IMG/VR virus record: IMGVR_UViG_3300036784_000120
Coordinates: 1 to 64,000 of that record
DNA from: a virus
Taxonomy: Duplodnaviria; Caudoviricetes
Length of the DNA: 64,000 nt
Strand: one strand, 5' to 3'
Part shown: one piece after another, positions 2,427-35,983 of the stretch
Position numbering within the stretch: the stretch's first letter is position 1
How the letters are laid out: every line of letters begins with the position of its first letter
Made by a program: the position numbers and the translations under genes
Notes under the pieces: model-generated
Told to the model about the DNA's origin: nothing
What the model saw: the letters and a program-made list of their open reading frames with translations, nothing else
Databases searched by the model: none

Positions 2427-3230
2427 ATGCAACCAAGACTCCCGGTGCCCGGGATGACACTCGAAGCCAGTCCGGCGCGTACCGGGTCACTGGTGATTGA
2501 TCGGCGCGGAACGTTTTCCCCCAGGGCTGCCGGGGCCGCGCAGACTCGGGGTGCGCGGCCGCCCGGGCACCGGGACCTGGACCGTATCGCGCTGAAGGCG
2601 GCGGGCACGCACTGGAACCGGTCCCTGTCCCACGCGGACCGGGTGCAGGCCGCATGGTCAGCAGCCGCCGAAGCGCTCACCGTGTCCGCGGATCTGCCGG
2701 AGGAGGACCTGCTGCGCGCGGCCCGCGACGGCATCAGCGACCTGGAGGCCAGCACCCGCCGGTTCTACGGCCTGTCGCAGGCGTCCGGCTACCGTGAGGT
2801 GACGGGCGCGTTCGGCGCCTACTGGTGGCAGCCGCCCCTGTCGGGGTGGGAGAACGCGGTCGTGGAACGGATCGCGCTCGGCCAGGTGTGGGCCGCGATC
2901 AGTCGCGCGGACCGGCAGGTTCTGCGGGCCCTCGCCGACGCGGGCGGCGACCAGGCGAAGGCGGCGGCGACGCTCGGCGTGCCGTATGCGGCGTACCGGG
3001 GGCGGCTGGGGCGGGCCCGTAAGGCGTTCCGCGCCCTGTGGCATGAAGGTGAGCAGCCGCCACGGCACCAGGGAAGCGTCCGGGTCCGGAAGGTGACGCA
3101 CTGCGGCCCCGCCGGCCATGAGTACACGCCGGAGAACACGCTCTACTGGCGGGAAGGCCACCGGACCAGGCTCCGGTGCCGGGCCTGCGAGACAGCCCGC
3201 GACGCGGCACGGCAGGAGACCGCCGCATGA
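2427..3230 (+). CDS. Sigma-70 region 4-like HTH protein with C-terminal Zn-binding domain
   Basis: DRQVLRAL...QAKAAATLGVPYAAYRGRLGRARKAF HTH; C-terminal THC..GHEYTPENT...CRAC. Confidence 0.6.
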   Translation: MQPRLPVPGMTLEASPARTGSLVIDRRGTFSPRAAGAAQTRGARPPGHRDLDRIALKAAGTHWNRSLSHADRVQAAWSAAAEALTVSADLPEEDLLRAARDGISDLEASTRRFYGLSQASGYREVTGAFGAYWWQPPLSGWENAVVERIALGQVWAAISRADRQVLRALADAGGDQAKAAATLGVPYAAYRGRLGRARKAFRALWHEGEQPPRHQGSVRVRKVTHCGPAGHEYTPENTLYWREGHRTRLRCRACETARDAARQETAA

Positions 3231-3502
3231 CCGTCACCCTGGAAACCCGTGTCACCTGCCCGGAATGCGGGCACAAGATCCGGTTCATCGCGGTGACCAC
3301 GGTGCGGGTGAACAAGCGCAGCATCCGGGACATCGGCACCGGTCCCGTCATGCTCGGCGCACTGGAGGACTGGCGGTGCCCCGGCTGCCGCACGGAGATC
3401 CCCCGGGACAGGCCGCTGGACCGGGAACCCTACCGGCTCGTGGCGGAGGATGCGGTGAGGGTGGCGGAGTACCGGAAGGCGAAGTGGGGGATCGAGGAAT
3501 GA
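3227..3502 (+). CDS. Zinc-ribbon hypothetical protein
   Basis: ATGA overlap; CPEC and CPGC pairs. Confidence 0.6.
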   Translation: MTVTLETRVTCPECGHKIRFIAVTTVRVNKRSIRDIGTGPVMLGALEDWRCPGCRTEIPRDRPLDREPYRLVAEDAVRVAEYRKAKWGIEE

Positions 3503-4122
3503 GCGGGCAGCCTGACCCGGCGTGGCGGTGCCCGGACATCGGCTGCACCGCCCATCCCGGTGACGTGCAGGTGTGGGAACGGCCCGTGATCGACGAATCG
3601 CAGGTCATCCGGGAAACCGGGGCTGGCCTGTTCGATCCGCCGACAGCCGCGTTCGACCTGACCCGCACGTTCCGGTACCACCTGACACGGACCTGGGAGC
3701 CGAGCCGGGCGCCGCTGGTGTGGATCATGCTGAACCCGTCGACCGCCGACGCGGACGAGGATGACCGTACGATCGGCCGATGTGCGGAGTTCGCGCGGCG
3801 GGAAAACGCGGGCGGCATCAGCGTCGTGAACCTGTTCGCATTCCGCGCGACCAAACCCGCCGAGCTGCGCCGTCACCGTGCGCCGGTCGGGGGGCTGAAC
3901 GACGCGTTCATCGTTACCGAATGCCCGGCCCGGACCGTGGTCGCTGCGTGGGGGGCGCACGGCACTTACCTCTACCGTGACCGGGAGGTGGCCGAGCTGC
4001 TCGCCGCAGTCGGCGTCCCGCTGCGGTGCCTCGGGGTGACGGCGGGCGGGCATCCCCGGCATCCGCTGTATGTGCGGGGGGATGCGCCGTTGGTCCCGTA
4101 CCATACTGGTCTTGATTCGTGA
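3499..4122 (+). CDS. DUF1643 family protein
   Basis: RYHLTRTW...IMLNPSTAD...DDRTI...VVNLFAFRATKP...AAWG...PRHPLY signature. Confidence 0.85.
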   Translation: MSGQPDPAWRCPDIGCTAHPGDVQVWERPVIDESQVIRETGAGLFDPPTAAFDLTRTFRYHLTRTWEPSRAPLVWIMLNPSTADADEDDRTIGRCAEFARRENAGGISVVNLFAFRATKPAELRRHRAPVGGLNDAFIVTECPARTVVAAWGAHGTYLYRDREVAELLAAVGVPLRCLGVTAGGHPRHPLYVRGDAPLVPYHTGLDS

Positions 4123-19606: not shown

Positions 19607-20247
19607 TGTTTGAGCGGTTCACCGACCGGGCCCGCCGCTCCGTGGTTCTCGCGCAGGAACAGGCCCGGATGCTGCACCACCGGGAGATCGACGTTGATCA
19701 TATGCTCCTCGGCCTCGCCGCCGAGGGGGAAGGGGTCGCGTTCAAGGCGCTGTCCGCGGCCGGGCAGAGCCTGCCGGGGCTGCGGATCGCTGTGGAGGAA
19801 AGCCGGGTGCCGGGTATCACGGCGGTCCCCGGGCACCTGCCGTTCACCCGCGAGCTCAAGCGGGCGCTCGAGAACGGGCTGCGGGAGTCGCTGCTGCTCG
19901 GCCACACCTATATCGGGACTGAGCATCTGCTGCTCGGCCTGATGCGGGACTGCGAGACCCGGGATGTCAGCCCGGTCACCGCGGTCCTGGCAATGTGCGG
20001 CACAACCCCGCAGGAGATCCGCGAGCAGGTCATGATCCTGCTGCGCGGCTACGGGGACGTGCCCGCCGAGCCCGAGACCGCCGCCGCTCCCCCGGGCGTG
20101 CAGTCACTTCCCCCGGGCGTGCAGGCGCTCGCCGACGGGCTGGATGAGATCATCCGCATCGCGCAGGGCATGAGACGGGACCTGGATGCCCTGGGCGCGG
20201 ACCCGCCGTCAGTAGACGGGCTGGGTGCCGGCGAAGATGACCGGTGA
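19606..20247 (+). CDS. Stand-alone Clp N-terminal (double Clp-R) domain protein
   Basis: MFERFTDRARRSVVLAQEQAR...HMLLGL and LPFT...GHTYIGTEHLLLGL; no AAA+ module. Confidence 0.88.
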   Translation: MFERFTDRARRSVVLAQEQARMLHHREIDVDHMLLGLAAEGEGVAFKALSAAGQSLPGLRIAVEESRVPGITAVPGHLPFTRELKRALENGLRESLLLGHTYIGTEHLLLGLMRDCETRDVSPVTAVLAMCGTTPQEIREQVMILLRGYGDVPAEPETAAAPPGVQSLPPGVQALADGLDEIIRIAQGMRRDLDALGADPPSVDGLGAGEDDR

Positions 20248-23200
20248 CTCGGGTGTGCCGGTGATCTTCGACCACACGTCGTAGCTCTGCCCGGCGGTGA
20301 GGGTGACGACCCCTCCCCCGGGCCCGACGAGACTCTGCGCGACGTAGCCTCGGCCGGTGCCGCCGAGCAGCCACGACGCCGTGTACCAGGTGACCGGCTG
20401 CGCGGGCGCGGCCGGGTGCCCGCTTGAGACGGGGAACGCCATCTGCACCGGCAGCAGGGACTGGCCCGCAGTCTGCCCGGTCGGGTCGATCGTCGTGCCG
20501 TCGAGGTCGGAGGTCCACAGGACGTTGATCTCCGCGAGAGACAGCGCGGATATGGGTGCGTAAAGGGTCGTCATGATCTTCCACCTTGCTGATGACGGCT
20601 GGGCTGTCCAGCGGTTCCGGGGTCTGGCGTCTGTTTTCCATCGCGTGCCGGCCGCCCCGGCGTGCCACCGCCCCGCCCCGGGGTAGCCGTGCCATCTGGC
20701 GGCGGCAGCGGCGGCCAGCCAGGTGATGGTGCCCGTGCCGGACCCGCCGGTGACCGTGCAGGTGACGGTGATTACGCCGGTCCCGGACAGGGCCGCGCCG
20801 GCGGGCGGGGTGAACCCGGTCGTGAGCACCCCGGACCCGGTGAGGGTGACAGTGACCTGAAGGGTCCACGCCGCGGTGAGCGTCCCGGTGCCGGACAGGG
20901 CGGCGGTGGCCCCGAGCGTCACCGTGACCGTCAGCGTCCCGGTCCCGGAAACCGCCACTCCCGGCAGCTGCGTGACCGCCGTGCTGAGGATGCCGGTGCC
21001 CGACAGGAGGGCGGCGCCCTCGCCGCCTTCGGCGACCGTGGCGGTGCCGGTGCCCGACAGGGACACGGTGACCAGCTGAACGACAGCGGTGGCCATCGTC
21101 CCGGACCCGGACAGCGCGGCGGTGGGCTGCTGGGTGACGGCGGTGGTGAGGGTTCCCGACCCGGCCAGCGCGGCACCGGGCTCGAGGATCCAGGCGGTGG
21201 CCAGCGTGCCCGTGCCGGACAGCGCCGCCCCGGCCTTGAGCACCCAGGCGGTCGTGAGGGTGCCCGCCCCGGACGCGGCCACGGCAGGCTGCTGCGTGAC
21301 CGCTGTCGTGAGGGTACCGCTGCCGGACAGGCCAGCTGAAGGCAGTTGCGTCACCGCCGTGGCCAGTGTGCCGGTGCCGGACAGGCCGGCGGTCGGCTGC
21401 TGCGTCACAGCGGTGGTGAGCGTGCCGGTGCCGGACAGGCCGGCGGTCGGCTGCTGCGTCACAGCGGTGGTGAGCGTGCCGGTGCCCGACAGGCCGGCGG
21501 TCGGCTGCTGCGTGACCGCGGTGGTGAGTGTCCCGGTGCCCGCGAGGGTGACGGAGGCGGCCAGTGTCCAGGCCGTGGCCAGCGTGCCGGTACCGGACAG
21601 GGTGGTCGCACCGGACAGGACAGGCGAACCCGGTGCGAGCAGCATCACCGTGCCGAACTTCTGCCCCGCATCCCCCCACCCCGGAGCCTGCGCGCTCACC
21701 GCGCAGTTCGGGTTGTATGCGAAGCCGTTGCCATTCGCGTCGAGCTGGTACGTGAAACCGGCCGTGGAGCCTAGCGTGGCAGTGCCGCTGTCCAGCGCGA
21801 ACCCGATGTACATCTCATTTGCGGCTGACGGGGTAAGGCTGGGCCACGTGGCAGTACCGGAACCGTCAAGGTTGGCCTGCTGGTCGAGAGACACCTGCCC
21901 GGTAGCCGACAGGACTTCCTGCCCGGCGACCCGCAGCGTCGTCGGGGTGACGCCGCTCCAGCCCACTGTGACAGTGCCAGGGGTCGTGGACGTGACCTGC
22001 CCGATAAAGCACGTGGACCGCCACGCGTTAACCGACCCGGCAAAACTCGAACCTATCTGCGCCCACGTGCAGTTAGGCGACGACACGGACGGAGTGCTGG
22101 ACTGGGTGTCTTCCTGTATGACCTCAAGGAAAACGAAGTCGCCGGTCGCGGCAGGTGCCAGCGTGAACGTACTGCTGGTGGCGTTTATCAGGGAGCCGAC
22201 CGGCGTAAATTGGTTAGGTGCGGCAACGTTGACCGCCTGCTGCCTGCGGCGGAACCTGCGCCCCCACTGCTGACCGCCGGGCTGCGTCACGGACGAGGTG
22301 GCCTGGGCGGCAACCGGGCCTAGATATCCGATATTGCTAAGGCCCAGGTCATCCATCCAGAACGGGCCCTGGTTGGCAGAGCTGCCCGTGAGTCCATAGC
22401 TGTAAATGTTGGCCGTGGACCCGGTGTTAAATGCCGCAGCCGACGTATTGATCTCATCAGGGACCACGCTGTCCATGGTCTTGAATAGCTGCTGCTCTAC
22501 CTGGCCGACGGTGGCAGAGATAGTGACGAAACCCTCAATGCGGAACCACTGATTCAGCGGGATCGTGGCAGTGCTTGTCAAAATAGAGGTCGAACTAGCG
22601 CCACGGAAATTAAGCGTGCCGTTGCTGAGGATTTGAACAAACGACTGAGCGGTAGTGCCGTTGAACGCGACCCAGAGACGTGCGTTAGCTGTCGGGAAGG
22701 CGGTGAAGTACAGGTACATCCGGAACCAGACCGTAGTCTGGGTGCCCATCGACGTGGACCAGCTCAAGTCTGATGGAGTGGCTGTGGTGCCGGTCGCAAC
22801 CTCGTAAGCCAGAGTCCCGTGCGCGACATGCGTGTTGTCAAAGATCCCGACCGCGCCAACGCCCGTGTTAGCTACTACATCGAACGCATTACCAGACGCC
22901 CCGCCACTGTTGGCTGCGGTAAAAGTGGTTCCGTTAGTGCCGCCCTCAGCGCTGTTGGTCAGGTTTCCCGCCGGGCCAAGCAATGCTGTATCTGATATGC
23001 CCAGGTCATCGAAAAACCAAGGGCCAGCCGCGATGCTGACCAGGCCATATTGTCCAGAGCCGATAGTGCCGCGTGTGGCCCGTCCCGTCAGGTTAAACGT
23101 TCCGCCGGTTATCGGCGTGGTGCTGTCCCCGAGGTAGACGTTGGAATCCACGGTCCCGACTGTGGCGTCGCCATGAATGTGCAGCTCGATGCGGTACCAC

Positions 23201-23583
23201 GTGTTCAGTGACAGAACAGGGGAAATCGCAGTATTGTTGGCCAAGTTCTGGTCGGAGAAGAACAACTGGTTAGCCGTGTTTATCTGGAACCGGCCATTGC
23301 GCCCGGCGGCGCTCTGCACGTCCAGCACCACCGCCGTGGCAGTGGGCGCGGACGGCAAGAACAGGTAGAGCCGGAAATATGCGTCAAGCACCTCAGCGGG
23401 CAGCGTCCAGTTGACATGTGCGACGGTGCTCACCGACATGGATGAGCCACTGTGCATCGCCGGGGTGTTGGAATAATTGACTGTGCCGGTTACTGATGTA
23501 AACGCAGTCCCGTTACTACCTGAGTTAGCCGCAGTGATAGCAGTCCCGTTCGGCCCGTCAAGACCGTTAGTCCAGGTAACCAC
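20209..23583 (-). CDS. Long tail fibre/receptor-binding-like protein with repeats; possible internal start at 20574
   Basis: Two beta-sandwich-like repeats (WYRIE/WFRIE), ~18-aa LSGTGTL repeats, C-terminal domain MTTLYAP... Confidence 0.7.
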   Translation of the reverse strand: MVTWTNGLDGPNGTAITAANSGSNGTAFTSVTGTVNYSNTPAMHSGSSMSVSTVAHVNWTLPAEVLDAYFRLYLFLPSAPTATAVVLDVQSAAGRNGRFQINTANQLFFSDQNLANNTAISPVLSLNTWYRIELHIHGDATVGTVDSNVYLGDSTTPITGGTFNLTGRATRGTIGSGQYGLVSIAAGPWFFDDLGISDTALLGPAGNLTNSAEGGTNGTTFTAANSGGASGNAFDVVANTGVGAVGIFDNTHVAHGTLAYEVATGTTATPSDLSWSTSMGTQTTVWFRMYLYFTAFPTANARLWVAFNGTTAQSFVQILSNGTLNFRGASSTSILTSTATIPLNQWFRIEGFVTISATVGQVEQQLFKTMDSVVPDEINTSAAAFNTGSTANIYSYGLTGSSANQGPFWMDDLGLSNIGYLGPVAAQATSSVTQPGGQQWGRRFRRRQQAVNVAAPNQFTPVGSLINATSSTFTLAPAATGDFVFLEVIQEDTQSSTPSVSSPNCTWAQIGSSFAGSVNAWRSTCFIGQVTSTTPGTVTVGWSGVTPTTLRVAGQEVLSATGQVSLDQQANLDGSGTATWPSLTPSAANEMYIGFALDSGTATLGSTAGFTYQLDANGNGFAYNPNCAVSAQAPGWGDAGQKFGTVMLLAPGSPVLSGATTLSGTGTLATAWTLAASVTLAGTGTLTTAVTQQPTAGLSGTGTLTTAVTQQPTAGLSGTGTLTTAVTQQPTAGLSGTGTLATAVTQLPSAGLSGSGTLTTAVTQQPAVAASGAGTLTTAWVLKAGAALSGTGTLATAWILEPGAALAGSGTLTTAVTQQPTAALSGSGTMATAVVQLVTVSLSGTGTATVAEGGEGAALLSGTGILSTAVTQLPGVAVSGTGTLTVTVTLGATAALSGTGTLTAAWTLQVTVTLTGSGVLTTGFTPPAGAALSGTGVITVTCTVTGGSGTGTITWLAAAAAARWHGYPGAGRWHAGAAGTRWKTDARPRNRWTAQPSSARWKIMTTLYAPISALSLAEINVLWTSDLDGTTIDPTGQTAGQSLLPVQMAFPVSSGHPAAPAQPVTWYTASWLLGGTGRGYVAQSLVGPGGGVVTLTAGQSYDVWSKITGTPESPVIFAGTQPVY
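20780..21600 (-). repeat. Coding tandem repeats of ~54 bp (LSGTGTLTTAVTQQPTAG)
   Basis: Near-identical consecutive units around 21330-21540, degenerate flanking units. Confidence 0.85.
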
Positions 23584-25804: not shown

Positions 25805-28060
25805 TTACGGGCCGGCCGCCGCTATCGGCCTGAGCACCGTGTTCTCCAGCTGCAGCAGCCCCGTCAGGGACTGGTCAGCGTTCACGTACGGGGTGATCGT
25901 CGCGACCTGCGCGAAGTCATCCCACGAGTACGCGCCGGTGATGAACGTGACCGGGAACTGCGGGGTGACCTCCCCGCCGTACCCGAAGTCGGTGAGGATG
26001 AGACGGCACACGGTGCCCGCCTGGTCGGTGCCCGGGTCGATCGGTGTCCCGCCGGTGTTGAGCAGCTGCCCGTAGCTGACGGTGAACGGCCCGGCGAACG
26101 ACGCGCGCTGGTATATCCCGAGGACGGCGTTCCCGACCGCTTGCGCCGCCCCGGCCGACTGGACGCCCACGTCGGCCAGGTCAATGTAGGTTTCGATGAC
26201 GCCGTGCGCGGCGACCGACTGAGCGTTCTGCACGCTCGTGGTCGCGTATGTCGCGGTGGCGCCGGTGGTGGTGTTGTCCGCGGTCACCTCATACCGGATG
26301 AAGATCGTGTTGATGTCCCCGCCCAGTGTGCGGGCGACCGGGGTGGTGCACACCAGCAGCCGGTTCACCGCCGACGGCAGCGTGAACACCGACAGGTCGT
26401 CGCCGGGTGACCCGCCCGGCTGGCTGTTCACGTACCAGGTGAGCCCGCCGCGGGTGCAGATCAGGGTGAGCAGCGCCGTGATCGTCTGCGCCCCGGACTC
26501 GACAGCCTGCCCGTACCAGGCGCCAGCCGGGGTGCCGACCCCGGGATTCGTCCACGGCAGCCCGCGGCTGATCGCCCCGTTGATCGACTGGTCGGGCTGC
26601 GATGCGGGCCAGGTGCTCGAGTAGATCGCGAGGAAATCCTGGCCGCGGCTGCCTGCGCCGGTCGCGGTCAGCGTCCAGCCCTGCGCCGTTGGGACTGGTT
26701 CGTCCATTTTCCCTGACCACACCTGATGCCCGCCCCGGGTGATTTTCACCTTCCACCCGGGGTTGAACAGCTGGGTGCGGTACGCGGCCGGGACCATCAG
26801 GGTGGCGGTCATCTTGTCGCAGCCGCCGGGACACACGTAACCGTAACTCAAGGCGGTGACCTGCCCGAGGGTGCCGAGCCACTGCCAGGACGAGGAGCCG
26901 GGCGGCGCGACCGCGACCTGACTGGAGCCGGGCAGCGCGTAGGGGACGGCGACGCCGCCGATGCCGTTGACGAGACCGCCGGTCACCTGCGGGATGGACA
27001 GGTCCCCGATGCCGGTCAGGGCGATGGTCAGGCCGAGGCCGACGGTGACGCCGAGAGTCCCGGTCCCGGTCAGTGCCGCGGACTGCAGCCAGGTGCCGGT
27101 GATCGTGCCGCTGATGCTGCCCTCACCGTCGAGGGCCGCGGCGCCCTGCCACGTGTCGGTTGCCGTCGCGGTGAGGGTGCCGGTGCCGGACAGGACCGCG
27201 CCGGTCGTCACCCCGGCTGCGGTCAGGTCCCCGTGCCCGGACAGCGCCGCCGCCGCCGTGGTCAGCTCACGCGCGGTCATGTCGCCGTGGCCGGACAGCG
27301 ACGCGGCCCCGCCGAACGCCCCCGCGGCTGTCAGCGCGCCGGTGCCGGTCAGGGCGGCGGCCCCGGAGATGGTGGTGACCGCCGTGGGAACGCCGATCGA
27401 CCAGGTGATGTAGTCGGCGGTGGTGGACGGGGTGAAATGCCCGGGGACCTGCGATCCGGCCGACACGGCGGCATTGGAGTCCGACGCGACCGCGATACCG
27501 GACGCTGACCCGAAGTTCGCCTCACGGACCGTGGAGGCCAGCGACGGGCCGGTGCAGGTGGAGAACCCGGCTGACCCGTTGCACAGCGCACCGAGGCAGA
27601 CCAGCCACGTGCCGGCCTGCGCCGTGGTGATCGTCGGGCACGTGTCGGAGGTGGTCAGCGTCGCGGAGCTGGTGACCGCGGCCCCGTCCCACGTGGTGGA
27701 CGCCCCCCGGTACACGACCATCGTCAGGTTATAGAACAAGCTGGTGCCGGTGCTGATCGTGACGACCTTGCTCGCGTCACTCGACGTGGTGCCCGTCGTC
27801 CCGGCTGCGGACAGGTAGAACAGCGCCCCGTTGTTCTGCGAGCTCGTGCCCGCCACGTACTGGCCGGTGCCCTGCTGGCTCCAGGCTGACCCGGTGGACG
27901 CGATCGAGATGGTGGTAGACCCGGAACTGCCGGAGTAGCAGTTGGCGACCAGCAGCAGCACATCGCCGCCCTGCACGGTCGACGGGATGGTGATCGTCTT
28001 GGAGGTGACCAGCGACGACGCCGTGTTGGCGTTCGCCTGGGTTACATAGCTAACGGCCAC
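25805..28060 (-). CDS. Minor tail protein (baseplate hub/fibre-like)
   Basis: N-terminal Thr/Ser-rich domain, LSGTG repeats, C-terminal hub-like domain (VKITRGGHQVWSG). Confidence 0.7.
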   Translation of the reverse strand: MAVSYVTQANANTASSLVTSKTITIPSTVQGGDVLLLVANCYSGSSGSTTISIASTGSAWSQQGTGQYVAGTSSQNNGALFYLSAAGTTGTTSSDASKVVTISTGTSLFYNLTMVVYRGASTTWDGAAVTSSATLTTSDTCPTITTAQAGTWLVCLGALCNGSAGFSTCTGPSLASTVREANFGSASGIAVASDSNAAVSAGSQVPGHFTPSTTADYITWSIGVPTAVTTISGAAALTGTGALTAAGAFGGAASLSGHGDMTARELTTAAAALSGHGDLTAAGVTTGAVLSGTGTLTATATDTWQGAAALDGEGSISGTITGTWLQSAALTGTGTLGVTVGLGLTIALTGIGDLSIPQVTGGLVNGIGGVAVPYALPGSSQVAVAPPGSSSWQWLGTLGQVTALSYGYVCPGGCDKMTATLMVPAAYRTQLFNPGWKVKITRGGHQVWSGKMDEPVPTAQGWTLTATGAGSRGQDFLAIYSSTWPASQPDQSINGAISRGLPWTNPGVGTPAGAWYGQAVESGAQTITALLTLICTRGGLTWYVNSQPGGSPGDDLSVFTLPSAVNRLLVCTTPVARTLGGDINTIFIRYEVTADNTTTGATATYATTSVQNAQSVAAHGVIETYIDLADVGVQSAGAAQAVGNAVLGIYQRASFAGPFTVSYGQLLNTGGTPIDPGTDQAGTVCRLILTDFGYGGEVTPQFPVTFITGAYSWDDFAQVATITPYVNADQSLTGLLQLENTVLRPIAAAGP

Positions 28061-28066
28061 AGGCGG

Positions 28067-28645
28067 TCAGCTGAACCAGTTGGTGGCGCGCAACTGCCCG
28101 ATGATCGAGTTGCAGCAGTTGGTCAGCTGGCTGAGCGTCCCCGTGCCGGCGATGGTGCCGGGTGAGGTCTGCCTGGTTATGCCGGTACCCGAGAGGAAGA
28201 ACGCTCCGCCAGAGATGTTCAGCGAATCCGCTGTCGTCGCGGCGTCAACACGCAGCGGCCCGCCGGGGCCGCCGGACCCGTAGAGCGTGCCTGTGACGGC
28301 AAGGTTCCCGCAGGTGACAGGGCCGGTGAACGTCCCGCCCGAGATCGGCATCGCGCCGTTGGCCGTGGTCTGCGCGCTGTTAGCGGTGCTCTGCGCGGTG
28401 TTGGCCGTGCTCTGCGCGGTCGACACGTTGCTGTTGGTGGTGCCGAGCTGGGTCACCACCCCGTTGACCCGTGTCGTAAGAGCGCGGGTCTGGGCCGTGT
28501 TGGCGGTGCTCGCCATCGCCGAACCCCAGAAGAACACCAGCAGCGCGAGGATCACCAGGTGACCGGGCAGGAACCAGGCCACTCCCGCGGCCACGGTCAG
28601 CGCGAGCTTCTTCATCGCCGCCACCGACGGCAAGGGTCCGGTCAT
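28067..28645 (-). CDS. Tail-module protein with N-terminal hydrophobic segment and AQSTANT repeats
   Basis: GAAAGGA RBS; AQSTANT x3; MPISGGTFTG fibre-like motif. Confidence 0.6.
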   Translation of the reverse strand: MTGPLPSVAAMKKLALTVAAGVAWFLPGHLVILALLVFFWGSAMASTANTAQTRALTTRVNGVVTQLGTTNSNVSTAQSTANTAQSTANSAQTTANGAMPISGGTFTGPVTCGNLAVTGTLYGSGGPGGPLRVDAATTADSLNISGGAFFLSGTGITRQTSPGTIAGTGTLSQLTNCCNSIIGQLRATNWFS

Positions 28646-28666
28646 CGGAAATCCTTTCGCACGGAT

Positions 28667-28959
28667 ACTGCGCCGCTCGGGGCGGGGAGGAGCGCGCCCT
28701 CTCGCCGATCGGTAGGATGAACACGTCCGGTGACGGACCCGCCGCAGGGCATGCGGTGGCAGCGCGGCAAGCCTTCTAGCGCACTCAGGCACGGCGATGA
28801 CCCGCGAACCTCTTGCACACGGCTGACACCCGCAAGGGACGCCTGCTTCGCAGGGGCGGCGATACCGCGATAGCCAAGCGGTGCCGCCCCTGCACTATGC
28901 TGGCCACTGTCAGCTGTGTGCAGGGAATCCGCGCCCTTCAGGGCGATGGAGGATGTCAA
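28667..28959 (+). mobile_element. Non-autonomous IS200/IS605-type mini-element (no tnpA/tnpB)
   Basis: Right end GAAT(28925)-hairpin CGCCC-TTCA-GGGCG-GAGG-ATG-TCAA(28959) matches IS608/ISDra2 RE architecture; imperfect left hairpin 28681-28706; left boundary inferred. Confidence 0.7.
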
Positions 28960-28976
28960 CACAGGGTCCGATCGAA
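28725..28976 (+). ncRNA. TnpB-type omega RNA (reRNA) scaffold plus 17-nt guide
   Basis: -10 TAGGAT at 28713; nested stems TGCACAC.GCTGACA/TGTCAGC.GTGTGCA and GCAGGGGCGGC/GCCGCCCCTGC; ends at TCAA followed by CACAGGGTCCGATCGAA. Confidence 0.62.
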
Positions 28977-29023
28977 CTGGATATGAGTTCGATATTGGCC
29001 GCATTTCACAGGGTCCGATCGAA
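28960..29023 (+). repeat. 17-bp direct repeat CACAGGGTCCGATCGAA (28960-28976 and 29007-29023)
   Basis: Exact copies separated by 30 nt. Confidence 0.95.
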
Positions 29024-32000
29024 GTAGTAGGCCGCGAAGTAGGCGAGCGACACGTTCGGGGCGGTTGCGTCCGCGCAGTAGACGAACAGCTGGTTGTCGC
29101 CGTCGGCAGGCTCGACGAACAGGGTGCCGCCCGACATGTACGGGGTGTTGTCCATCACGCTGATCGCGTCGGGCCGGCCGGCCTGGCTGCCCATGATGCG
29201 GCCGACGGACACGTTCGGGTCGGGGGCATCCAGGAAATAGGTCAGGTAGCCGCTGCTCGGCTCGTTGATGACGACGGTCTGACCCATCGTGTCGAGGAAC
29301 AGGCAGTCGAAAAACCGATCTGACGTGTTGCTGTCTGTCACGGATACGGTGTAGTAGCCGCCTGTGTTGTCCGGTGCGACCGCTTTCGGCGGCAGCGTCA
29401 GGACCCCGGCGGTGACGATCCCGTTAGTGACCTGGTTCGGGGCGATCGAGATCGGCAGCGTGCTCACCGGGTAGCCGGGGCCGCCGGCGTACTCGTACTG
29501 GGTGACGGTGACCGTGATCGTCCTCGGGGTGCCGCTCCCCGATCCGCCGGACCACGAGGAGTTGATCAGGTACAGGGTGTAGGTGCCGGCGAAGTCAGCG
29601 TTCACGCCGGTGACCGGCTGAGGCATCGTGTACATGTGGGTGCCGTCCGGCGCGTCCGACCCGCCCCCGACCGACACCATCGGCTGGAATGTTTTCGTTG
29701 CACCGAGCGGCGGCCGGTGCACGATGAGGGTTTTGAACGCGGCCGGCGCGTACGGGGTGATCTTCAGCTGGCCGTTGCCGCCGTTGCCGCCTGTCTTGGC
29801 CGTGCCGGAGGAGTACGCGCCGCCGCCGCCGCCGCCGGGCGCTGACCCGTTCGACCCGTTGTTGCCCGCCGACCCGGCACCGGCACCGCCCGCACCGCCG
29901 CCGGTGACCGCTGCGCCGCCGGCGTTAGTCGGTGCCCCGGTGGTGGCGGGGTACTGGAGAGTGACCTGCCCGGCCGCGCCTGCACCGCTCGTGTTAGCCG
30001 AGTTGTACGTGCCGCCTCCGCCGCCGCCAGGCGCCGAGCCCGCGGTCCCGTTGCCGGACTGCGCACCCGATGACGCACCGCCGCTGCCGCCTCCGCCCGG
30101 CGCGGTACCGCCGCCCGGGCTGCTGCCCGCGTTACCCGCCGCGCTGCTGCCCGCCGACGACCCGCCGCCGCCCGCGTACGGGTAGGCGTTGCCGCCGTGG
30201 CCGCCCGCGTAGCCGGTGGTGCCCGTGCCTCCCGTGCCGCCGTTGCTCGGGCTGCCGAACGTGTTGCCCAGCCCGCGGCCGCCGGGCTGGCCGATGACCT
30301 GGTGGCCGCCGTCCCCGGTGAAACTGGACAGGGCACCGTTGTTTCCGTTCGCGCCGCCTGTGACGCCGGTGCCGCCGCCGCCGACCACGACGTTGTAGCT
30401 GTTGCCGGCGGTGACCGGGACAACGCCGATGCGTGTCTCGCCGCCGCCTCCGCCCTGCCCGTTGCCGCTGCCCGCCCCGGAACCGCCGGAGCCGCCAGCA
30501 CCCTGGACGATGGCTGTCACCTGCGTGACACCCGCCGGGCACACCCATGGTGTGGTGCCGACCGAGGTGAAAACCTGCGAGCCGGTGCCCATCGGCGTGT
30601 TGCCTGCTGAGGTGCTGCCGCCGGAGGACCCGCCGCCGCCGCCGAACGTGTTCGCGGGGTTAGCGCGGCCAGCTCCGCCGGGGTACTCGACGGAGCTCAG
30701 CGACCCGAACCCGCCGAACCCCGCAGTGGTGCCGTTCGTCGCCACCGACCCGCCGCCGTCAGCGGTGACCTGCAGCGTGCCGCCCGGCGCCGGCCCGAAC
30801 ACTGTGTCCTGCCCGCCGTTCGGGGACGCGCCCGCCGTGTCGCCGGCGCCGACAACATACGGGATGACCTGCGCGGCCGTGGCAGGGAACACGGTTTCCG
30901 CGGCGTACTCGGCGCCGCCGCCGCCCGCTCCGACCCCGGCGACGGTCATGCCCGCGCCGGCGCCGCCGCCGCCGGTCGCCTCCACTTTCAGCCACGCCGT
31001 GTTCGACGGGACCGTGTAGTTGCCGGGGCCCGCCGCAGTGATGGTGGTCGGGGTGCCCGGCACCGGGGACTGCTGGAACGACATCGACGCGGGGGCCCTG
31101 GCGGTGCCCTGCACCCCGTAAATGGTGTAAACAGCGCCGCGGACAACCGGGTTGACCTGCTGGCTGCCCGGGTAGGCGGTCAGCGCGTCAATGTAGGCGG
31201 TGACCCATGACAGGCGCCGCACCCGGTCCTGCCGGGACACGACCTCCAGGCTGTAGGAGGCCACCGACCCGTAGTTGAACGTGCTGCTGCCCTGCGGCAC
31301 ACCGATCGTGACGCGGGAGAAGACGGGGGACTGCGCCGAGTTCGCGACGGGCAGCAGCAGATGCGACCTGGAGAACGACAGCGTGTTCCCGCCCGAGTCA
31401 GTCAGGGTGATATACACGCCGGTGCCGTGGATTTTCCCGTGATATTCGAGGTTCGCGTAATACCTGCTGCCGAGCCCGAGCCACATCTGCAGCGAGGTCA
31501 TCCCGGTCAGGTTCAGCGGCGACCCGAACGACGCGCTGTAGGTCAGCGGCGTGAACTGGCCGCCGGGGTCGCCGAACCCGTCGGGGTCCCAGCAGCAGGA
31601 GGTCGGCCCGACGACACACTGGCTGGACTGGAAGCACTGCACGGAGGAGATGGTGGAGAAGTTGTCGAGCACCACCGGGGCCGGCGGCGGCGGCACCGTC
31701 GGCGTGGTGGGGACCGGTGCGGAGAAACTGACCTGCGACTGGGTGTCGGACCGGCCGTAGGGCAAAGCGGGGATGGTCAGCTGGATCTGCATCCCGATGA
31801 GCTGCTTCTCCAGCAGCGTGTTGAAGACCGGGACGGTGGGATGCGCGCGGAAACAGTCGAACACCAGCGGCAGCGGCGTGTTCCCGGGGTTCCCGGCGGT
31901 GGCGTCCCTAGTCCACACGATGGTGAAGTAGTCCTGGTCGATCGCCTGCTCGAGCAGTTCCCTGGCCGCAGCCAAAGTGCGGCGGTCCGGTGCGGTGATC

Positions 32001-32221
32001 CACACCGGCAGCTTGATGGTGCGGTTGGAGGCGCGGCGCCCGAACGGCCGTTCCCCGTCGAGCAGCAGGCTGGCTACGAAGTCGGTGGTCGGCTGCGGTG
32101 CCCCCGGGTCAGCGCCGGGCTGCAGCCGGAACATGGCACCGGGGCACAGCGGGTTGACCGACGCGACCTGACCGCCGAGCAGCTCAATAGTGTTCGCGAT
32201 GACGAGAGAGTCGAACCCCAT
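29006..32221 (-). CDS. Minor tail protein with glycine-rich domains (distal-tail position)
   Basis: Directly after tape measure; RASNRTIKLPV N-terminus; GGGGAG-rich repeats. Confidence 0.8.
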   Translation of the reverse strand: MGFDSLVIANTIELLGGQVASVNPLCPGAMFRLQPGADPGAPQPTTDFVASLLLDGERPFGRRASNRTIKLPVWITAPDRRTLAAARELLEQAIDQDYFTIVWTRDATAGNPGNTPLPLVFDCFRAHPTVPVFNTLLEKQLIGMQIQLTIPALPYGRSDTQSQVSFSAPVPTTPTVPPPPAPVVLDNFSTISSVQCFQSSQCVVGPTSCCWDPDGFGDPGGQFTPLTYSASFGSPLNLTGMTSLQMWLGLGSRYYANLEYHGKIHGTGVYITLTDSGGNTLSFSRSHLLLPVANSAQSPVFSRVTIGVPQGSSTFNYGSVASYSLEVVSRQDRVRRLSWVTAYIDALTAYPGSQQVNPVVRGAVYTIYGVQGTARAPASMSFQQSPVPGTPTTITAAGPGNYTVPSNTAWLKVEATGGGGAGAGMTVAGVGAGGGGAEYAAETVFPATAAQVIPYVVGAGDTAGASPNGGQDTVFGPAPGGTLQVTADGGGSVATNGTTAGFGGFGSLSSVEYPGGAGRANPANTFGGGGGSSGGSTSAGNTPMGTGSQVFTSVGTTPWVCPAGVTQVTAIVQGAGGSGGSGAGSGNGQGGGGGETRIGVVPVTAGNSYNVVVGGGGTGVTGGANGNNGALSSFTGDGGHQVIGQPGGRGLGNTFGSPSNGGTGGTGTTGYAGGHGGNAYPYAGGGGSSAGSSAAGNAGSSPGGGTAPGGGGSGGASSGAQSGNGTAGSAPGGGGGGTYNSANTSGAGAAGQVTLQYPATTGAPTNAGGAAVTGGGAGGAGAGSAGNNGSNGSAPGGGGGGAYSSGTAKTGGNGGNGQLKITPYAPAAFKTLIVHRPPLGATKTFQPMVSVGGGSDAPDGTHMYTMPQPVTGVNADFAGTYTLYLINSSWSGGSGSGTPRTITVTVTQYEYAGGPGYPVSTLPISIAPNQVTNGIVTAGVLTLPPKAVAPDNTGGYYTVSVTDSNTSDRFFDCLFLDTMGQTVVINEPSSGYLTYFLDAPDPNVSVGRIMGSQAGRPDAISVMDNTPYMSGGTLFVEPADGDNQLFVYCADATAPNVSLAYFAAYYFDRTL

Positions 32222-35200
32222 CTAGGCTCCCCCGCGCGGGTAGCGGCGGGCGTACGACGCGTCTGATGCGCTCGCGTTGATCACGCCGCCGACATGCCGC
32301 CCCACCCCGGCGGGGACAGCGCCGGTGACTTCGATCAGCCGGTCGAGGCGGGCCAGGATCGCCGCCGCGGACCCGTCGCTGCCCGCGGCGGGACGGCCGC
32401 CGACGGGGGTGACCATTTCGCTGCCGGCCTCGCCGAGCACGTAGCCGCGGCCGGAGTTCACGCCGTAGCCGACGACCGGCTCCGTGATCATGCCGCCCGA
32501 CCCGTACCAGTGATACTGGGCCTCATGGTTCCAGGCAGCGGCCGGCGAACCGTACCGTTGCGCGATGTAGTTGAGCATGCCGGTGATCTGGCCGGCGACC
32601 GTGTTCACGTTCCCGCCGTACGTGGCGTACTCCGCTGGCCCGTTGATGAACTGGGCCAGGCCGTAGGCGTTTGACGTTGGGTTCTTGGCGTTCGGGTTGT
32701 AGCCGGCTTCCGCCATCTCCACGGCGTTCAGCGCCGTCCACTCCGCGCCGGTCCAGCCCTTGGCGGCGGCCATCGTCTTCATCAGCGCCATGACGCTGGC
32801 CTGCGTGGCGTTCAGCGCGTAGCCGTGGACGCTGTTAATGACGGCCTTGACCGCGTTGACTACGCCGCTGGCCTTGCTGAGCCCGATGCCCAGCCCGGCC
32901 ATGATGTGCTTCCCGGCGTCGATCGCCCACTGCGGCGGGCTCTTGATGCCGAGCGCGCTGAGAATGTCGCCGGGGATGCCCTTGAAAAACGACACGACGC
33001 TGTTCCACACGGATTTCACCCCGGCCAGCAGTCCGTTGATGACCCCGGCACCCCAGCTGGTCAGCACTTTCGCGGCGCTGCCGACCGCCGAGCTGATCTG
33101 GCCGGGGATGCCCTTGAAGAAGTTGACGATGGCGCCCCACACCGACGTGATCGTGTTACGGACGCTGGTCCAGCCCGCCGACAGGACCGATTCGATGGTG
33201 GCGATGGTTGACCTGAAACTGGCCACCTCGGCGTTCCACCAGCCGGTGAAGAACGAGGCGACCGCGTTCCACGCGGTTTTGAGTGCGCCGGTGATCGCGG
33301 TCCAGGCGGCGGACAGCGCATTCTCGATGGTGGTCAGGGTGGTTTTCCACCCGGTCACCTCCGTGCTCCACCAGGTGGTGAAGAACGCGGCGACCGCGTT
33401 CCACGCGGCCTTCAGCGCGCCGGTGATCGCAGCCCAGGCACCGGTGAAGAACGTCTCCACCCCGGAGATGACGGCCATGATGTCGTGCCAGATGGTGGTC
33501 CAGTGCTGGGCGAGCTCGATCGCCGCGAGGGCGAGCAGCCCGACCGGGCCGAGCAGCGGCAGCAGGTACTTGCCGATCCCGTTGTAGATGAAGTTCCAGG
33601 CGTCCTCCGCGGCCGTCTTGATCGCGCCCCACACCGTGGACCAGTGCGTGACCAGCTCAGTGATGGCGACGGTGATCAGGGCTATCGCGATGACGATCTC
33701 GGTCCACCCGGTGGCCGCCCCGATCGCTGCCACGATGGCCTCCGCGATGGCGAACGCCTTGAACGCGGCTACCAGGCCGAGCACGCCGATCACGATGGCG
33801 TTCAGCAGGCCGGGCGGGATGGCGGTGATGATCGCGGCCAGCGCGGTGGCCAGGGCGCTCACCGCAGCGACTACGGCGGCGGTGAACACCCCGGCGAGCT
33901 GCAGCAGCAGCGGCAGGACGACCGGCAGGATCGAGGCCAGCGACTGGAGCACTTTGGTGACGAGCTGGGTGAGCGGCGGCAGCAGGGCGCCGACAGCGGA
34001 GACCAGCGCACCGACGAGCAGCCCCGACAGTTTGGCGATGAAGTCGATGACTGGCGGCAGGATGGGCATCAGGCCGTGCAGGAAAGCGTTGATCAGGCCG
34101 GCGAGGGGCTTGACGAGGCCCTCCAGGGCGTCGCCCAGGATCGCGAATACGCCGGTGTTTTCCAGCACGGTGAACACGGTGGAGATCACCTGCGCGAACT
34201 GGGCCAGGGCGGGCGCGACGGCGGTCAGAAGCTGGGCTAGCGCGCCGAACGCGGCCACCAGGTCCCCGAGCACCGCCCCGGCCAGGGACGCGAACACTTT
34301 GCCAATGATCGTCAGGAACGGCAGCAGCGCCTGGATGACCCCGGCGAACTGGGTGAATACCGGGGCCAGGGTCGCCGCGAAGATGGCGGCCAGCTTGCCT
34401 ATGATCGGCAGCAGCGCCCCGATCACGTCGAATATCGCCTTGAACAGGACCGCGCTCTGGTTGATGACCGGCGCGAACGCGGAGAACACGCCGCCGATGT
34501 CCTTGCCCAGGGTGCCGAGCACCTGCGCGAACACGTTAATAGCCGGGCCTGCCACCTTGAGCAGCGTCACGATGCCGGGCAGGATGTTCGCCACCAGTGC
34601 GCCCAGGCCGTCGATAATCGGGCGGATCAGCGGGGCAGCAGCGGCGAAGCTGGAACTGAAGGCAGGCAGGACCGTCTTGGCCAGGTCGCCCAGCCCGGAG
34701 ATGAGCGGCTGCGCCAGCACGAGCGCCGACGTGAAGAAATGCTCGATCAGCGGCGTGAGGGTGACGAACAACTGGGATGCCTGCGCCAGCGGCTTGGCGA
34801 ACCCGCTGGCAATGTCCATGCCGATCTGCTGCCACTGGTTACCGATCGCGACTTCGGACTTGTAGATGCTCTGGAGCGCCGGGGACAACTGGGCGACAGC
34901 CTGGTTGAGGCTGGCGGTCTGCGCGGCCACCGCTTTCTGCTGAGCCGGGGTGACTGCCAGCGCGGCTGCCTGCTGAATTGAGTTCTGCTGCGACACCAGG
35001 CTGGAGACGTTGGAGTTGACGGCGCTGAAGCCCGCTCCGAGCGCGCCCACGCCAGCGCCGCCGATCACGCCCGCACCGCCGGCAGCCAGCAGCGGGCCCA
35101 GGCCGCCCAGCAGGGACGCGCCTCCGACACCGATCGCGCCGGCCTTGCCCAGGAAGTTGGCCCCGAGGATGTTCGGGCCGATACCTCCGGCCAGGTTGCC

Positions 35201-35983
35201 GAGGAAGCTGCCGCCGCTTCCCCCGCCGCCGCTGGCACCGGACGAGCCGCCTGCGTGGCCGCCGATGAGGCCGCCGATCGCGCTGGTGAACAGCGCGCCG
35301 ACCCCGGTCAGCATGCCCTTGAACCAGCCGGAGCCGTTGCGCCTGGCCTCGTCGGTGGCGCCCTTGTTGGCCGCGTCGGCTGCCTGCCTTCCGGCTTCCT
35401 CGGCCTGGGCTTTGACTGCGGTGCTGTCGATCTTGTCCGTGGTGGTGATGGTTCCGCCGCTAGCCGGCAGCCCGGTGACGTTCACCCGGTCCGTGGTGGT
35501 GATGTTCCCGCCGGAGGTGGGCAGCCCGGTGACGTTCACCCGGTCCTGGGTGGTCGTGTTGCCGCCGGCGGCGGTGTCGAGCACGCGGCCCACCGTGGTC
35601 TGCGACCCGCCCGCCGGCCCGCTGGCACCGCCGCCGGCAGGCGCGGACACGATCTTGCCGAGCAGCCCCTGCTGCGCGGACTGCTGCGGTGACGGCGCCC
35701 CGGTGACCGGGTGGGGGGAGAACAGCGCGTTCAGCGCCCCCAGCACCGACCCCTGCGGGGAGGACCGCAGCCGGTTCGCGGCGTCCTTGGAGATCGCGTT
35801 GTCCAGGTTCGCGAAATCCGTCCGCGCTTTCGACGATGACGCGTCGTCGAAGACAGCCGAGACCTTGACCTCGTGCCTGCCGTCCTCGAGCGCCTTGATC
35901 CTGGCCTCGATCTTGTCGAGGTCCGCGTTCGCCTTGGCGGTGCCGATGGTGAGGGTGGCTTCGATGGCGCCTGCGTCGAACAC
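32222..35983 (-). CDS. Tape measure protein with C-terminal lytic transglycosylase-like domain
   Basis: 1253 aa Ala-rich periodic W/F repeats; EAGYNPNAKNPTSNAYGLAQF...YIAQRYGSPAAAW; Y.LGEAGSE.V. Confidence 0.92.
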   Translation of the reverse strand: MFDAGAIEATLTIGTAKANADLDKIEARIKALEDGRHEVKVSAVFDDASSSKARTDFANLDNAISKDAANRLRSSPQGSVLGALNALFSPHPVTGAPSPQQSAQQGLLGKIVSAPAGGGASGPAGGSQTTVGRVLDTAAGGNTTTQDRVNVTGLPTSGGNITTTDRVNVTGLPASGGTITTTDKIDSTAVKAQAEEAGRQAADAANKGATDEARRNGSGWFKGMLTGVGALFTSAIGGLIGGHAGGSSGASGGGGSGGSFLGNLAGGIGPNILGANFLGKAGAIGVGGASLLGGLGPLLAAGGAGVIGGAGVGALGAGFSAVNSNVSSLVSQQNSIQQAAALAVTPAQQKAVAAQTASLNQAVAQLSPALQSIYKSEVAIGNQWQQIGMDIASGFAKPLAQASQLFVTLTPLIEHFFTSALVLAQPLISGLGDLAKTVLPAFSSSFAAAAPLIRPIIDGLGALVANILPGIVTLLKVAGPAINVFAQVLGTLGKDIGGVFSAFAPVINQSAVLFKAIFDVIGALLPIIGKLAAIFAATLAPVFTQFAGVIQALLPFLTIIGKVFASLAGAVLGDLVAAFGALAQLLTAVAPALAQFAQVISTVFTVLENTGVFAILGDALEGLVKPLAGLINAFLHGLMPILPPVIDFIAKLSGLLVGALVSAVGALLPPLTQLVTKVLQSLASILPVVLPLLLQLAGVFTAAVVAAVSALATALAAIITAIPPGLLNAIVIGVLGLVAAFKAFAIAEAIVAAIGAATGWTEIVIAIALITVAITELVTHWSTVWGAIKTAAEDAWNFIYNGIGKYLLPLLGPVGLLALAAIELAQHWTTIWHDIMAVISGVETFFTGAWAAITGALKAAWNAVAAFFTTWWSTEVTGWKTTLTTIENALSAAWTAITGALKTAWNAVASFFTGWWNAEVASFRSTIATIESVLSAGWTSVRNTITSVWGAIVNFFKGIPGQISSAVGSAAKVLTSWGAGVINGLLAGVKSVWNSVVSFFKGIPGDILSALGIKSPPQWAIDAGKHIMAGLGIGLSKASGVVNAVKAVINSVHGYALNATQASVMALMKTMAAAKGWTGAEWTALNAVEMAEAGYNPNAKNPTSNAYGLAQFINGPAEYATYGGNVNTVAGQITGMLNYIAQRYGSPAAAWNHEAQYHWYGSGGMITEPVVGYGVNSGRGYVLGEAGSEMVTPVGGRPAAGSDGSAAAILARLDRLIEVTGAVPAGVGRHVGGVINASASDASYARRYPRGGA

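Follow-up and report, generated by a model that had tools for sequence, protein, structure and literature searches.

The window (the whole stretch of DNA that was analysed, 64,000 nt) corresponds to the first 64 kb of an IMG/VR virus record of 127,789 bp, which has a GC content of about 70% and a CheckV completeness of 100%; the phage is an actinobacterial one. On the minus strand, three genes form a tail operon, namely a tape-measure gene (32222-35983), a minor tail protein gene and a gene encoding a protein of 192 aa, and the site of interest consists of the 360 nt separating the last two. The features identified at this locus are listed in Table 1. The start codon of the 192-aa gene (ATG, 28645-28643) falls within the TCAT tetranucleotide described below as the TAM, and homologues of its product occur in metagenomes at identities of 89 to 47%. 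The C-terminal end of the minor tail protein looks constrained, since 27 of 35 homologues end two residues past a DR or ER motif, as does the phage's own protein; four others end one residue past this motif, and the remaining four have no such end. The last 200 or so residues of this protein (window positions 29009-29608, minus strand) also occur as stand-alone proteins of 200-260 aa in many other phage contigs (P0042-P0076), some of which exceed 100 kb, and most of these proteins end in ...FDR-x-Q/L. When the MAGs were searched with the tail protein, no match was obtained, so that no prophage links the phage to its host.

Table 1. Features of the interval between the minor tail protein gene and the 192-aa gene, with window coordinates.
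Feature	Position	Strand	Basis
Downstream gene of the tail operon, 192 aa	28067-28645	-	ORF list; weak tail-fibre and alanine-zipper matches
TAM TCAT, reverse complement of ATGA, with the element directly 3' of it	28642-28645	+	Family alignment and empty sites
Open frame of 120 codons, antisense through the whole element	28642-29004	-	ORF list and frame analysis; no protein family match
Protein-less IS200/IS605 mini-element, PATE type, 314 nt, with TnpB omega-RNA scaffold	28646-28959	+	Homologous copies, covariation
Subterminal hairpin of the left end, with GATA/GAAA, the putative DNA "guide" tetranucleotide, before it	28668-28687	+	RNAalifold columns 23-42 pair; also in L048 and L049
TAGGAT, -10-like hexamer, probable retained tnpB promoter	28713-28718	+	CGnTAGGATG motif 6 nt before the tnpB ATG of L048
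Omega-RNA scaffold, ending in GGAATCC-hairpin-GGAGGATGTCAA, with TEM TCAA at 28956-28959	28739-28959	+	Homology to the last ~25 codons of tnpB and to the right end
Proximal 17-mer, omega-RNA guide position, original flank	28960-28976	+	Directly after TCAA; equals the 17 TAM-adjacent nt of L040
Filler, 30 nt, 40% GC in a 70% GC genome	28977-29006	+	Unique in the genome
Minor tail protein gene, 1071 aa	29006-32221	-	PHROG tail families and Gly_rich_2 domain
Distal 17-mer, serving as the tail gene's functional 3' terminus (F-D-R-T-L and TG of TGA)	29007-29023	+	Preceded by ATTT, not TCAT

When one genome per species was scanned for exact patterns, the 3' end of the element was detected only in uncultured Actinomycetes MAGs. 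Two of these (G001 and G002) carry homologous units of about 300 nt (72-80% identical) at unrelated sites, as well as many solo right ends. At least eight mini copies were found. In the alignment of eight full copies, conservation starts immediately after TCAT and stops at TCAA, the flanks being unrelated; the right-end terminus is TCAA in six of the eight, the other two ending in CCAA (L017) and CCAG (L023). The same MAGs harbor full-length elements of 1326 nt (L048) and 1332 nt (L049), which share with the mini-element both the TCAT|CAGGAT...hairpin left end and the GGAATCC-hairpin-GGAGGATGTCAA right end. The TnpB proteins they encode (392 and 398 aa, respectively) keep the RuvC motifs GLDRG / VEDL / DLNAA and the zinc finger CxxC..CxxC, and that of L048 matches the TnpB of ISDra2 (8exa, E = 2e-21). 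The coding end of these two tnpB genes (AAGHAVTARGG..VNREPQL) can be aligned with the mini-element's interior, and the 3' module of the omega-RNA was also located downstream of a TnpB-like domain in another locus (L025). Since the ends are shared and the interior is aligned to the 3' end of tnpB in L048 and L049, the segment at 28646-28959 is shown to be a non-autonomous, internal-deletion (PATE-type) derivative of an IS200/IS605 TnpB element, which keeps both end hairpins, a probable tnpB promoter and an omega-RNA scaffold supported by covariation. The preliminary description had proposed an omega-RNA element of the IS200/IS605 type devoid of a nuclease gene, and this proposal is supported by the homologous copies, by the parent TnpB elements and by the absence of tnpB inside the element.

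Beyond these MAGs, the distribution of the element is narrow. Among 201 genomes of the order to which G002 belongs, copies of the full element occur only in G002, and one genome (G136) gave a single 38-nt match to the scaffold region. A megablast search of 28000-29700 against 50,697 phage records detected no relatives, and a blastn search of 28660-28965 against the same records detected only the 37-nt end of the omega-RNA, in a Morganella phage (KY653118): the 37 nt immediately preceding 28960 share 92% identity with a sequence starting 9 nt after the tnpB gene of this phage, the product of which matches OrfB_IS605, Cas12f1-like_TNB and an HTH domain (Pfam). This tnpB gene (L009:1844-2992) is annotated as a "putative virulence protein". 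A truncated element, of which only the 3' end of tnpB and the omega-RNA are left, is present in an enterobacterial provirus contig (L010, 9870-10116).

In the eight-copy alignment, RNAalifold predicted 72 pairs, 27 of which show compensatory changes on both sides; the predicted helices include the left-end hairpin, the right-end hairpin and three internal helices. Compared with shuffled sequences, the plus strand folds with z = -3.7 and the minus strand with z = -1.4. The two subterminal hairpins are alike (CCGCC-GTTCA-GGGCGG on the left, CGCCC-TTCA-GGGCG on the right), and both covary in the eight copies. The putative DNA "guide" tetranucleotides are GAAT, found with TCAA, at the right end and, as a consensus, GAAA, found with TCAT, at the left end, the fourth position being complementary at both ends; the left-end variants GATA, GAAG and TGAC occur beside an unchanged TAM. 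The TAGGAT hexamer is probably the retained tnpB promoter, as judged from the motif it shares with L048, and a scan for the sigma-70 consensus found no promoter. The Rfam search of 27500-30000 (E <= 1) gave no match; to our knowledge, Rfam contains no model for this omega-RNA clade, and the result is hence no argument against the omega-RNA assignment.

Neither TnpB nor TnpA (PF07282, PF01385, PF01797) was found in the whole phage record, and the sole long frame inside the element had no match in Pfam. A zinc-ribbon at 3245-3409 resembling the TNB model of TnpB was rejected, the match being weak and below the cut-off. Y1 TnpA, on the other hand, gave 9 matches in MAG G002. PATEs are known from haloarchaea (PMC3119063), and PATE-like minimal IS200/IS605 elements encoding omega-RNAs have already been described in Geobacillus stearothermophilus (Meers et al., 2023; PMC10055086); the phage element is a further well-documented case, in which a guide-RNA-only IS605 derivative lying in a phage tail operon can be studied along with its empty sites, its parent elements and its TAM. 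Like the PATEs, it is protein-less, keeps the left and right hairpins, has an omega-RNA guide corresponding to the right-end flank, depends on TnpA and TnpB provided in trans, and belongs to a family with multiple copies beside full-length relatives. Unlike the PATEs, it is borne by a carrier that encodes neither TnpB nor TnpA, it is inserted in a stop/start overlap of a tail operon, and its flank is duplicated. The layout of its right end (GAAT-hairpin-~10 nt-TCAA|) is that of IS608, insertion without duplication of the target, 3' of a TAM of 4-5 nt, and a guide read from the first flank base are common to IS608 and ISDra2, and the related full-length element encodes a TnpB matching that of ISDra2. 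The phage element differs from both in that its TAM is TCAT and not TTAC (IS608) or TTGAT (ISDra2), its TAM and its TEM (TCAA) are only one base apart, its ends are 70% GC and actinobacterial, and it has no match in Rfam.

Relatives of the phage were retrieved from metagenomes with the 192-aa protein and the last 200 residues of the tail protein as queries. Six element-free sibling contigs (L040, L042, L043, L045, L057, and L058) read ...TG|ATG..., without any filler, and the TGA of the tail gene in these contigs shares its A with the ATG of the next gene, forming a TGATG stop/start overlap. Five of the six empty sites with this overlap carry TCAT. The contig L040, which over the final 403 nt of the tail gene shares 95% identity with the window, has the junction TTCGATCGGACCCTGTG|ATGACC, i.e., on the strand of the element, TCAT followed by all the guide bases (17/17). 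The element occupies the point between TG and ATGA of the overlap that ancestrally joined the minor tail gene to its downstream neighbour; in the empty sites, TCAT is contiguous with the flank, and there is no target-site duplication. TCAT also precedes the left end in all eight mini copies and in three tnpB elements (L048, L049, and the truncated L051). Since the family alignment starts after TCAT and the empty relatives read ...TG|ATG..., the boundary of the element is placed at 28645|28646 and its TAM is read as TCAT. These results conflict with the preliminary description, in which a "clean empty site" had been obtained by joining 28666 to 28960 and CGGAT had been taken as the TAM: positions 28646-28666 are the left end of the element, conserved in the eight copies amid unrelated flanks, and it is TCAT that lies 5' of the target. 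The empty alleles of relatives, which should on that view have read CGGAT followed by the 17-mer, read TTCGATCGGACCCTGTG|ATGACC, with an ATG junction. The scan of IMG/VR for the empty-site pattern yielded 0 matches.

Other states of this junction were encountered among the relatives, namely an 18-nt spacer in L044 and TAA|ATG in L060. At the same junction, L041 (2-316, minus strand) and L059 (307-1149, minus strand) carry a homing-endonuclease gene of the NUMOD4/HNH type on the opposite strand. The presence of such genes in two relatives indicates that this junction is a recurrent landing site for selfish elements.

The TAM read in reverse contains a start codon, and in six of the eight mini copies the ATG thus provided is the start of an opposite-strand frame 148 codons or more in length; three of these TAM-started frames are Pfam-confirmed genes (ScpB, cupin, and DUF1622). 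In five of the eight copies, the first ~20 nt of the left end provide, on the opposite strand, AAGGA, GGAGG or GGGAG located 6-9 nt before the ATG. In the phage, the reverse complement of the left end places AAGGA 7 nt before the ATG of the 192-aa gene. It may thus be a tendency of this element family to insert at start codons and provide them with an outward ribosome-binding site (loci concerned: window 28642-28666, L017, L021, L023, and L026).

The 17 nt following TCAA (CACAGGGTCCGATCGAA) occur exactly twice in the 127.8-kb genome. They form the sole exact local repeat of at least 17 nt in the window with a spacing (47) that is not divisible by 3, the larger local repeat families (D1-D5) being coding tandem repeats, and the number of such repeats expected by chance in the window is about 0.007. 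Several statements of the preliminary description were borne out at this point: the 17 nt recur exactly at 29007-29023, with no third copy in the whole genome; the second copy covers the FDRTL-stop codons of the gene at 29006-32221, more precisely F-D-R-T-L and the TG of TGA; and the assignment of the 17 nt after TCAA to the guide position is supported. TCAT precedes neither copy, the proximal one being preceded by TCAA and the distal one by ATTT. The repeat is not a TSD, since it does not flank the element. CRISPR-like spacer acquisition was rejected as its source, the genome containing a single scaffold and no repeat-spacer array. The 8-bp hairpin which had been reported to cap the first copy does exist (ATCGAACT, 28971-28978, pairing with AGTTCGAT, 28986-28993); with -15.1 kcal/mol and z = -2.1, it is marginal, as 10 of 200 shuffles fold equally well, and half of it comes free from the self-complementary TCGA palindrome.

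Compared with a plain insertion (TCAT-element-17mer-GTAGTA...), the right-end flank contains 47 extra bp, composed of the 30-nt filler and the second 17-mer. The filler provides the A of the tail gene's TGA along with a minus-strand ATG (29004-29002). It is absent from MAGs G001-G003, from IMG/VR and from all 10 relatives examined, and no significant similarity to nearby sequence was found beyond the hairpin. Two possible sources were rejected, namely a decayed duplicate of the right end, the similarity being at chance level and the 17-mer undecayed, and a remnant of an older tail-gene end, there being no similarity past the 17 nt and the copy being out of frame. The 17-nt duplication itself is present in none of the 10 element-free relatives. 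No other right-end copy, among about 25 that were checked, repeats its flank, and the duplication is thus a one-off historical event and not a feature of the system. On the minus strand, the plain junction reads CTG TG|T TGA, and since the reverse complement of the right end begins with TTGA, a plain insertion would leave a tail protein ending in ...FDRTLC*; with the 47 bp, the gene reads the native ...FDRTL-TGA.

The antisense frame starts 1 nt past the stop codon of the tail gene and ends in the TGA of the ATGA at the start of the next gene. An open frame of 120 codons has, by our estimate, a chance of about 10% per frame at 70% GC. This frame is probably not coding; it could allow the passage of ribosomes through the insert, and its position suggests that it may be a translational-coupling bridge. 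When the antisense ORF was used as a protein bait, only one further bacterial copy (L056) and no element-bearing phage were retrieved. The antisense frame is open across most or all of the element in six of the eight copies, and elsewhere it has been called as a protein by gene-prediction programs (P0040 and P0041).

The structure is best explained, in our tentative opinion, by a PATE-type insertion after TCAT, followed by one event at the right end which added the 47 bp and was kept by selection, a scenario which may well be correct, although we stop short of calling it probable. A Y1 TnpA of the host would have pasted the element 3' of TCAT, and a single later event in the right-end flank would have introduced the 30 nt of filler and the second 17-mer, a break or a replication error having been repaired with a templated copy plus filler. 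TnpA nicks at TCAA|, and TnpB cuts 15-21 nt from the TAM; the trigger might have been either a TnpA nick at TCAA| or a leaky TnpB cut about 17 nt from TCAA, acting as a near-TAM. The rearranged phage would have been retained because the native ...FDRTL-TGA end of the tail protein was regained, and it would also have gained an ATG, from which the frame extends across the structured insert as far as the ATGA of the next gene. We infer that the element came first and the 47 bp second, and the extra C-terminal Cys is assumed to have been harmful. We know of no documented repair pathway giving exactly a 17-nt copy and 30 nt of filler. The intermediate allele, i.e., that of an element-bearing relative without the 47 bp, was found neither in the metagenome searches, nor in IMG/VR, nor with the protein baits: two metagenome scans (right end plus guide, and tail end plus T) gave 0 matches, as did the IMG/VR scans for the filler and for the right end plus guide. 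L040 shows that sequence of the type scanned for does exist in the JGI data, and the collection scanned evidently does not include those short contigs.

The duplicated flank might thus be a repair scar at the position of a TnpA or TnpB cut, which we rank first, or the outcome of a rare natural capture of flank (and hence guide) sequence, which we rank second, the third place going to an indel older than the element. In the case of capture, a possibility that we find rather unlikely, TnpA would have cut 17 nt past TCAA|, after the TEM-like CGAA|, so that the element and the 17 nt moved as a unit and landed 3' of the same TCAT in an allele where a spacer of 30 nt separated the tail gene from the one that follows; the guide would be carried along as a fixed passenger, its target being the common TGATG allele instead of the site now occupied. 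This route predicts the order observed, TCAT-[element+17]-30 nt-17-tail, and leaves no filler DNA to be explained. The 17-mer ends in TCGAA, and if pairing is of the IS608 type (GAAT with TCAA, GAAA with TCAT), CGAA would retain three of the four contacts; the junctions of the relatives also differ from one another, as seen in the 18-nt spacer of L044 and the TAA|ATG of L060. A TnpA choosing an alternative boundary downstream of the right end was in fact observed by Meers et al. (2023; PMC10055086), who proposed flank capture (their Extended Data Figure 3), and a boundary of this kind would account for a 17-nt flank travelling with the phage element. Their observation concerned only an engineered TEM mutant and an exact TEM match, whereas CGAA resembles a TEM without matching it exactly. 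Furthermore, no allele with this spacer was found in the 10 relatives or in IMG/VR, the 30 nt contain no ribosome-binding site preceding the ATG, and no copy of the element plus 17 nt was found elsewhere. That the 17-nt guide, once captured inside a shifted right boundary, makes the element a mobile fixed-guide omega-RNA gene which cuts the TGATG junctions of siblings with a host TnpB is still less likely. If it does, this would be a nuclease-less gene drive or exclusion device working from any position in the phage genome, and a natural snapshot of fixed guides arising from IS605 flanks; flank capture would in any case bear on how fixed guides evolved.

The same final structure would be reached if the 47-bp duplication and filler predated the element, which would then have hit the TCAT by the proximal remnant copy, this copy being still TCAT-adjacent and thus a legitimate target for TnpA. 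The junction is also a hot spot of change, judging from the NUMOD4/HNH genes of L041 and L059 and the spacer of L044. This order of events is nevertheless improbable: the duplication occurs in 0 of the 10 element-free relatives, and without the element it would have had neither a trigger nor a selective reason. As the record is a metagenome-derived viral contig, element-bearing and element-free variants of a population might, lastly, have been collapsed during assembly, an artefact to which we attach hardly any probability, since no assembler could produce 30 unique nt out of nothing, and the native stop and open frame make the structure internally coherent.

As regards the function of the guide, an omega-RNA guide is read from the right-end flank, and the sequence at 28960-28976 is in this sense shown to be the last 17 nt of the tail gene, that is, the old flank. 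Every IS605 guide, being a flank, automatically matches the empty allele. The duplicated 17 nt look like a by-product of insertion rather than a purpose-built self-targeting device. The preliminary description had considered a guide aimed at element-free relatives, and L040 does carry TCAT and 17/17 guide bases; the match, being automatic for IS605 guides, is no evidence of aiming. It had also pointed out that the phage's own second copy has no TAM, and this proved correct (ATTT before the distal copy versus TCAT). In a host with a compatible TnpB, the omega-RNA would direct the cutting of element-free siblings such as L040, resulting in homing or exclusion, and the two 17-mers of the phage should be spared since they are preceded by TCAA and ATTT, not by TCAT. 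The cutting of siblings is inferred from established TnpB biology (Meers et al., 2023), and the activity of the omega-RNA is putative. The situation resembles the donor-joint homing by TnpB and omega-RNA described by these authors in that guide and TAM match the element-free allele of L040, the type of substrate that is cut there; it differs in that a sibling phage infecting the same cell would carry the vacant site, and that the nuclease would come from the host. If the RNA is active, the phage could, with no nuclease gene of its own, skew inheritance to the disadvantage of element-free siblings.

The second copy might conversely have been kept so that the omega-RNA and a TnpB, whether active or dead, act on the end of the phage's own tail gene, either as a roadblock or regulator in the late operon or as a designed self/non-self system. 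ISDra2-type TnpB works with guides of lengths that include 17 nt, the identity between the two copies is perfect (17/17), and the omega-RNA is antisense to the late operon. We nonetheless regard this function as very unlikely, given that the distal copy lacks a TAM (ATTT versus TCAT), that the phage has no TnpB, that the catalytic motifs of the L048 and L049 TnpBs are intact, that the arrangement exists in no other member of the family, and that the copy is not needed for pairing with the operon mRNA, which is already complementary to the antisense transcript across 300 nt. The roadblock by a dead TnpB which had been suggested finds no support, as the TnpBs of L048 and L049 keep RuvC and the zinc finger and the phage encodes none. 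A repressor of the TldR (nuclease-dead TnpB) type was rejected on similar grounds, there being no TnpB-like gene in the phage and the RuvC motifs of L048 and L049 being intact: a fixed guide beside the scaffold and a mobile-element or phage context are common to the two systems, but the phage has no TnpB-like gene, its candidate partner TnpBs have intact catalytic motifs, and the match in its own genome lacks a TAM. The guide's identity with part of the phage's own gene, which had been over-read, corresponds to an old flank and a one-off 47-bp rearrangement and not to programmed self-targeting; the points of interest are the complete dependence on host enzymes, the start-codon TAM with its outward ribosome-binding site, and the duplicated flank.

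Some further observations were made elsewhere in the genome. A motif resembling the right end at genome position 97034, outside the window, was discarded, as it looks like a chance occurrence. An HNH-endonuclease-like ORF (window 2427-3230, plus strand) overlaps the start of a gene encoding a DUF1643 protein (3118-4122, plus strand). The ORF of 1124 aa at 20209-23583, for which no PHROG match was found, contains an in-frame tandem repeat of 54/108 nt, present in eleven copies at window positions 20816-21571.
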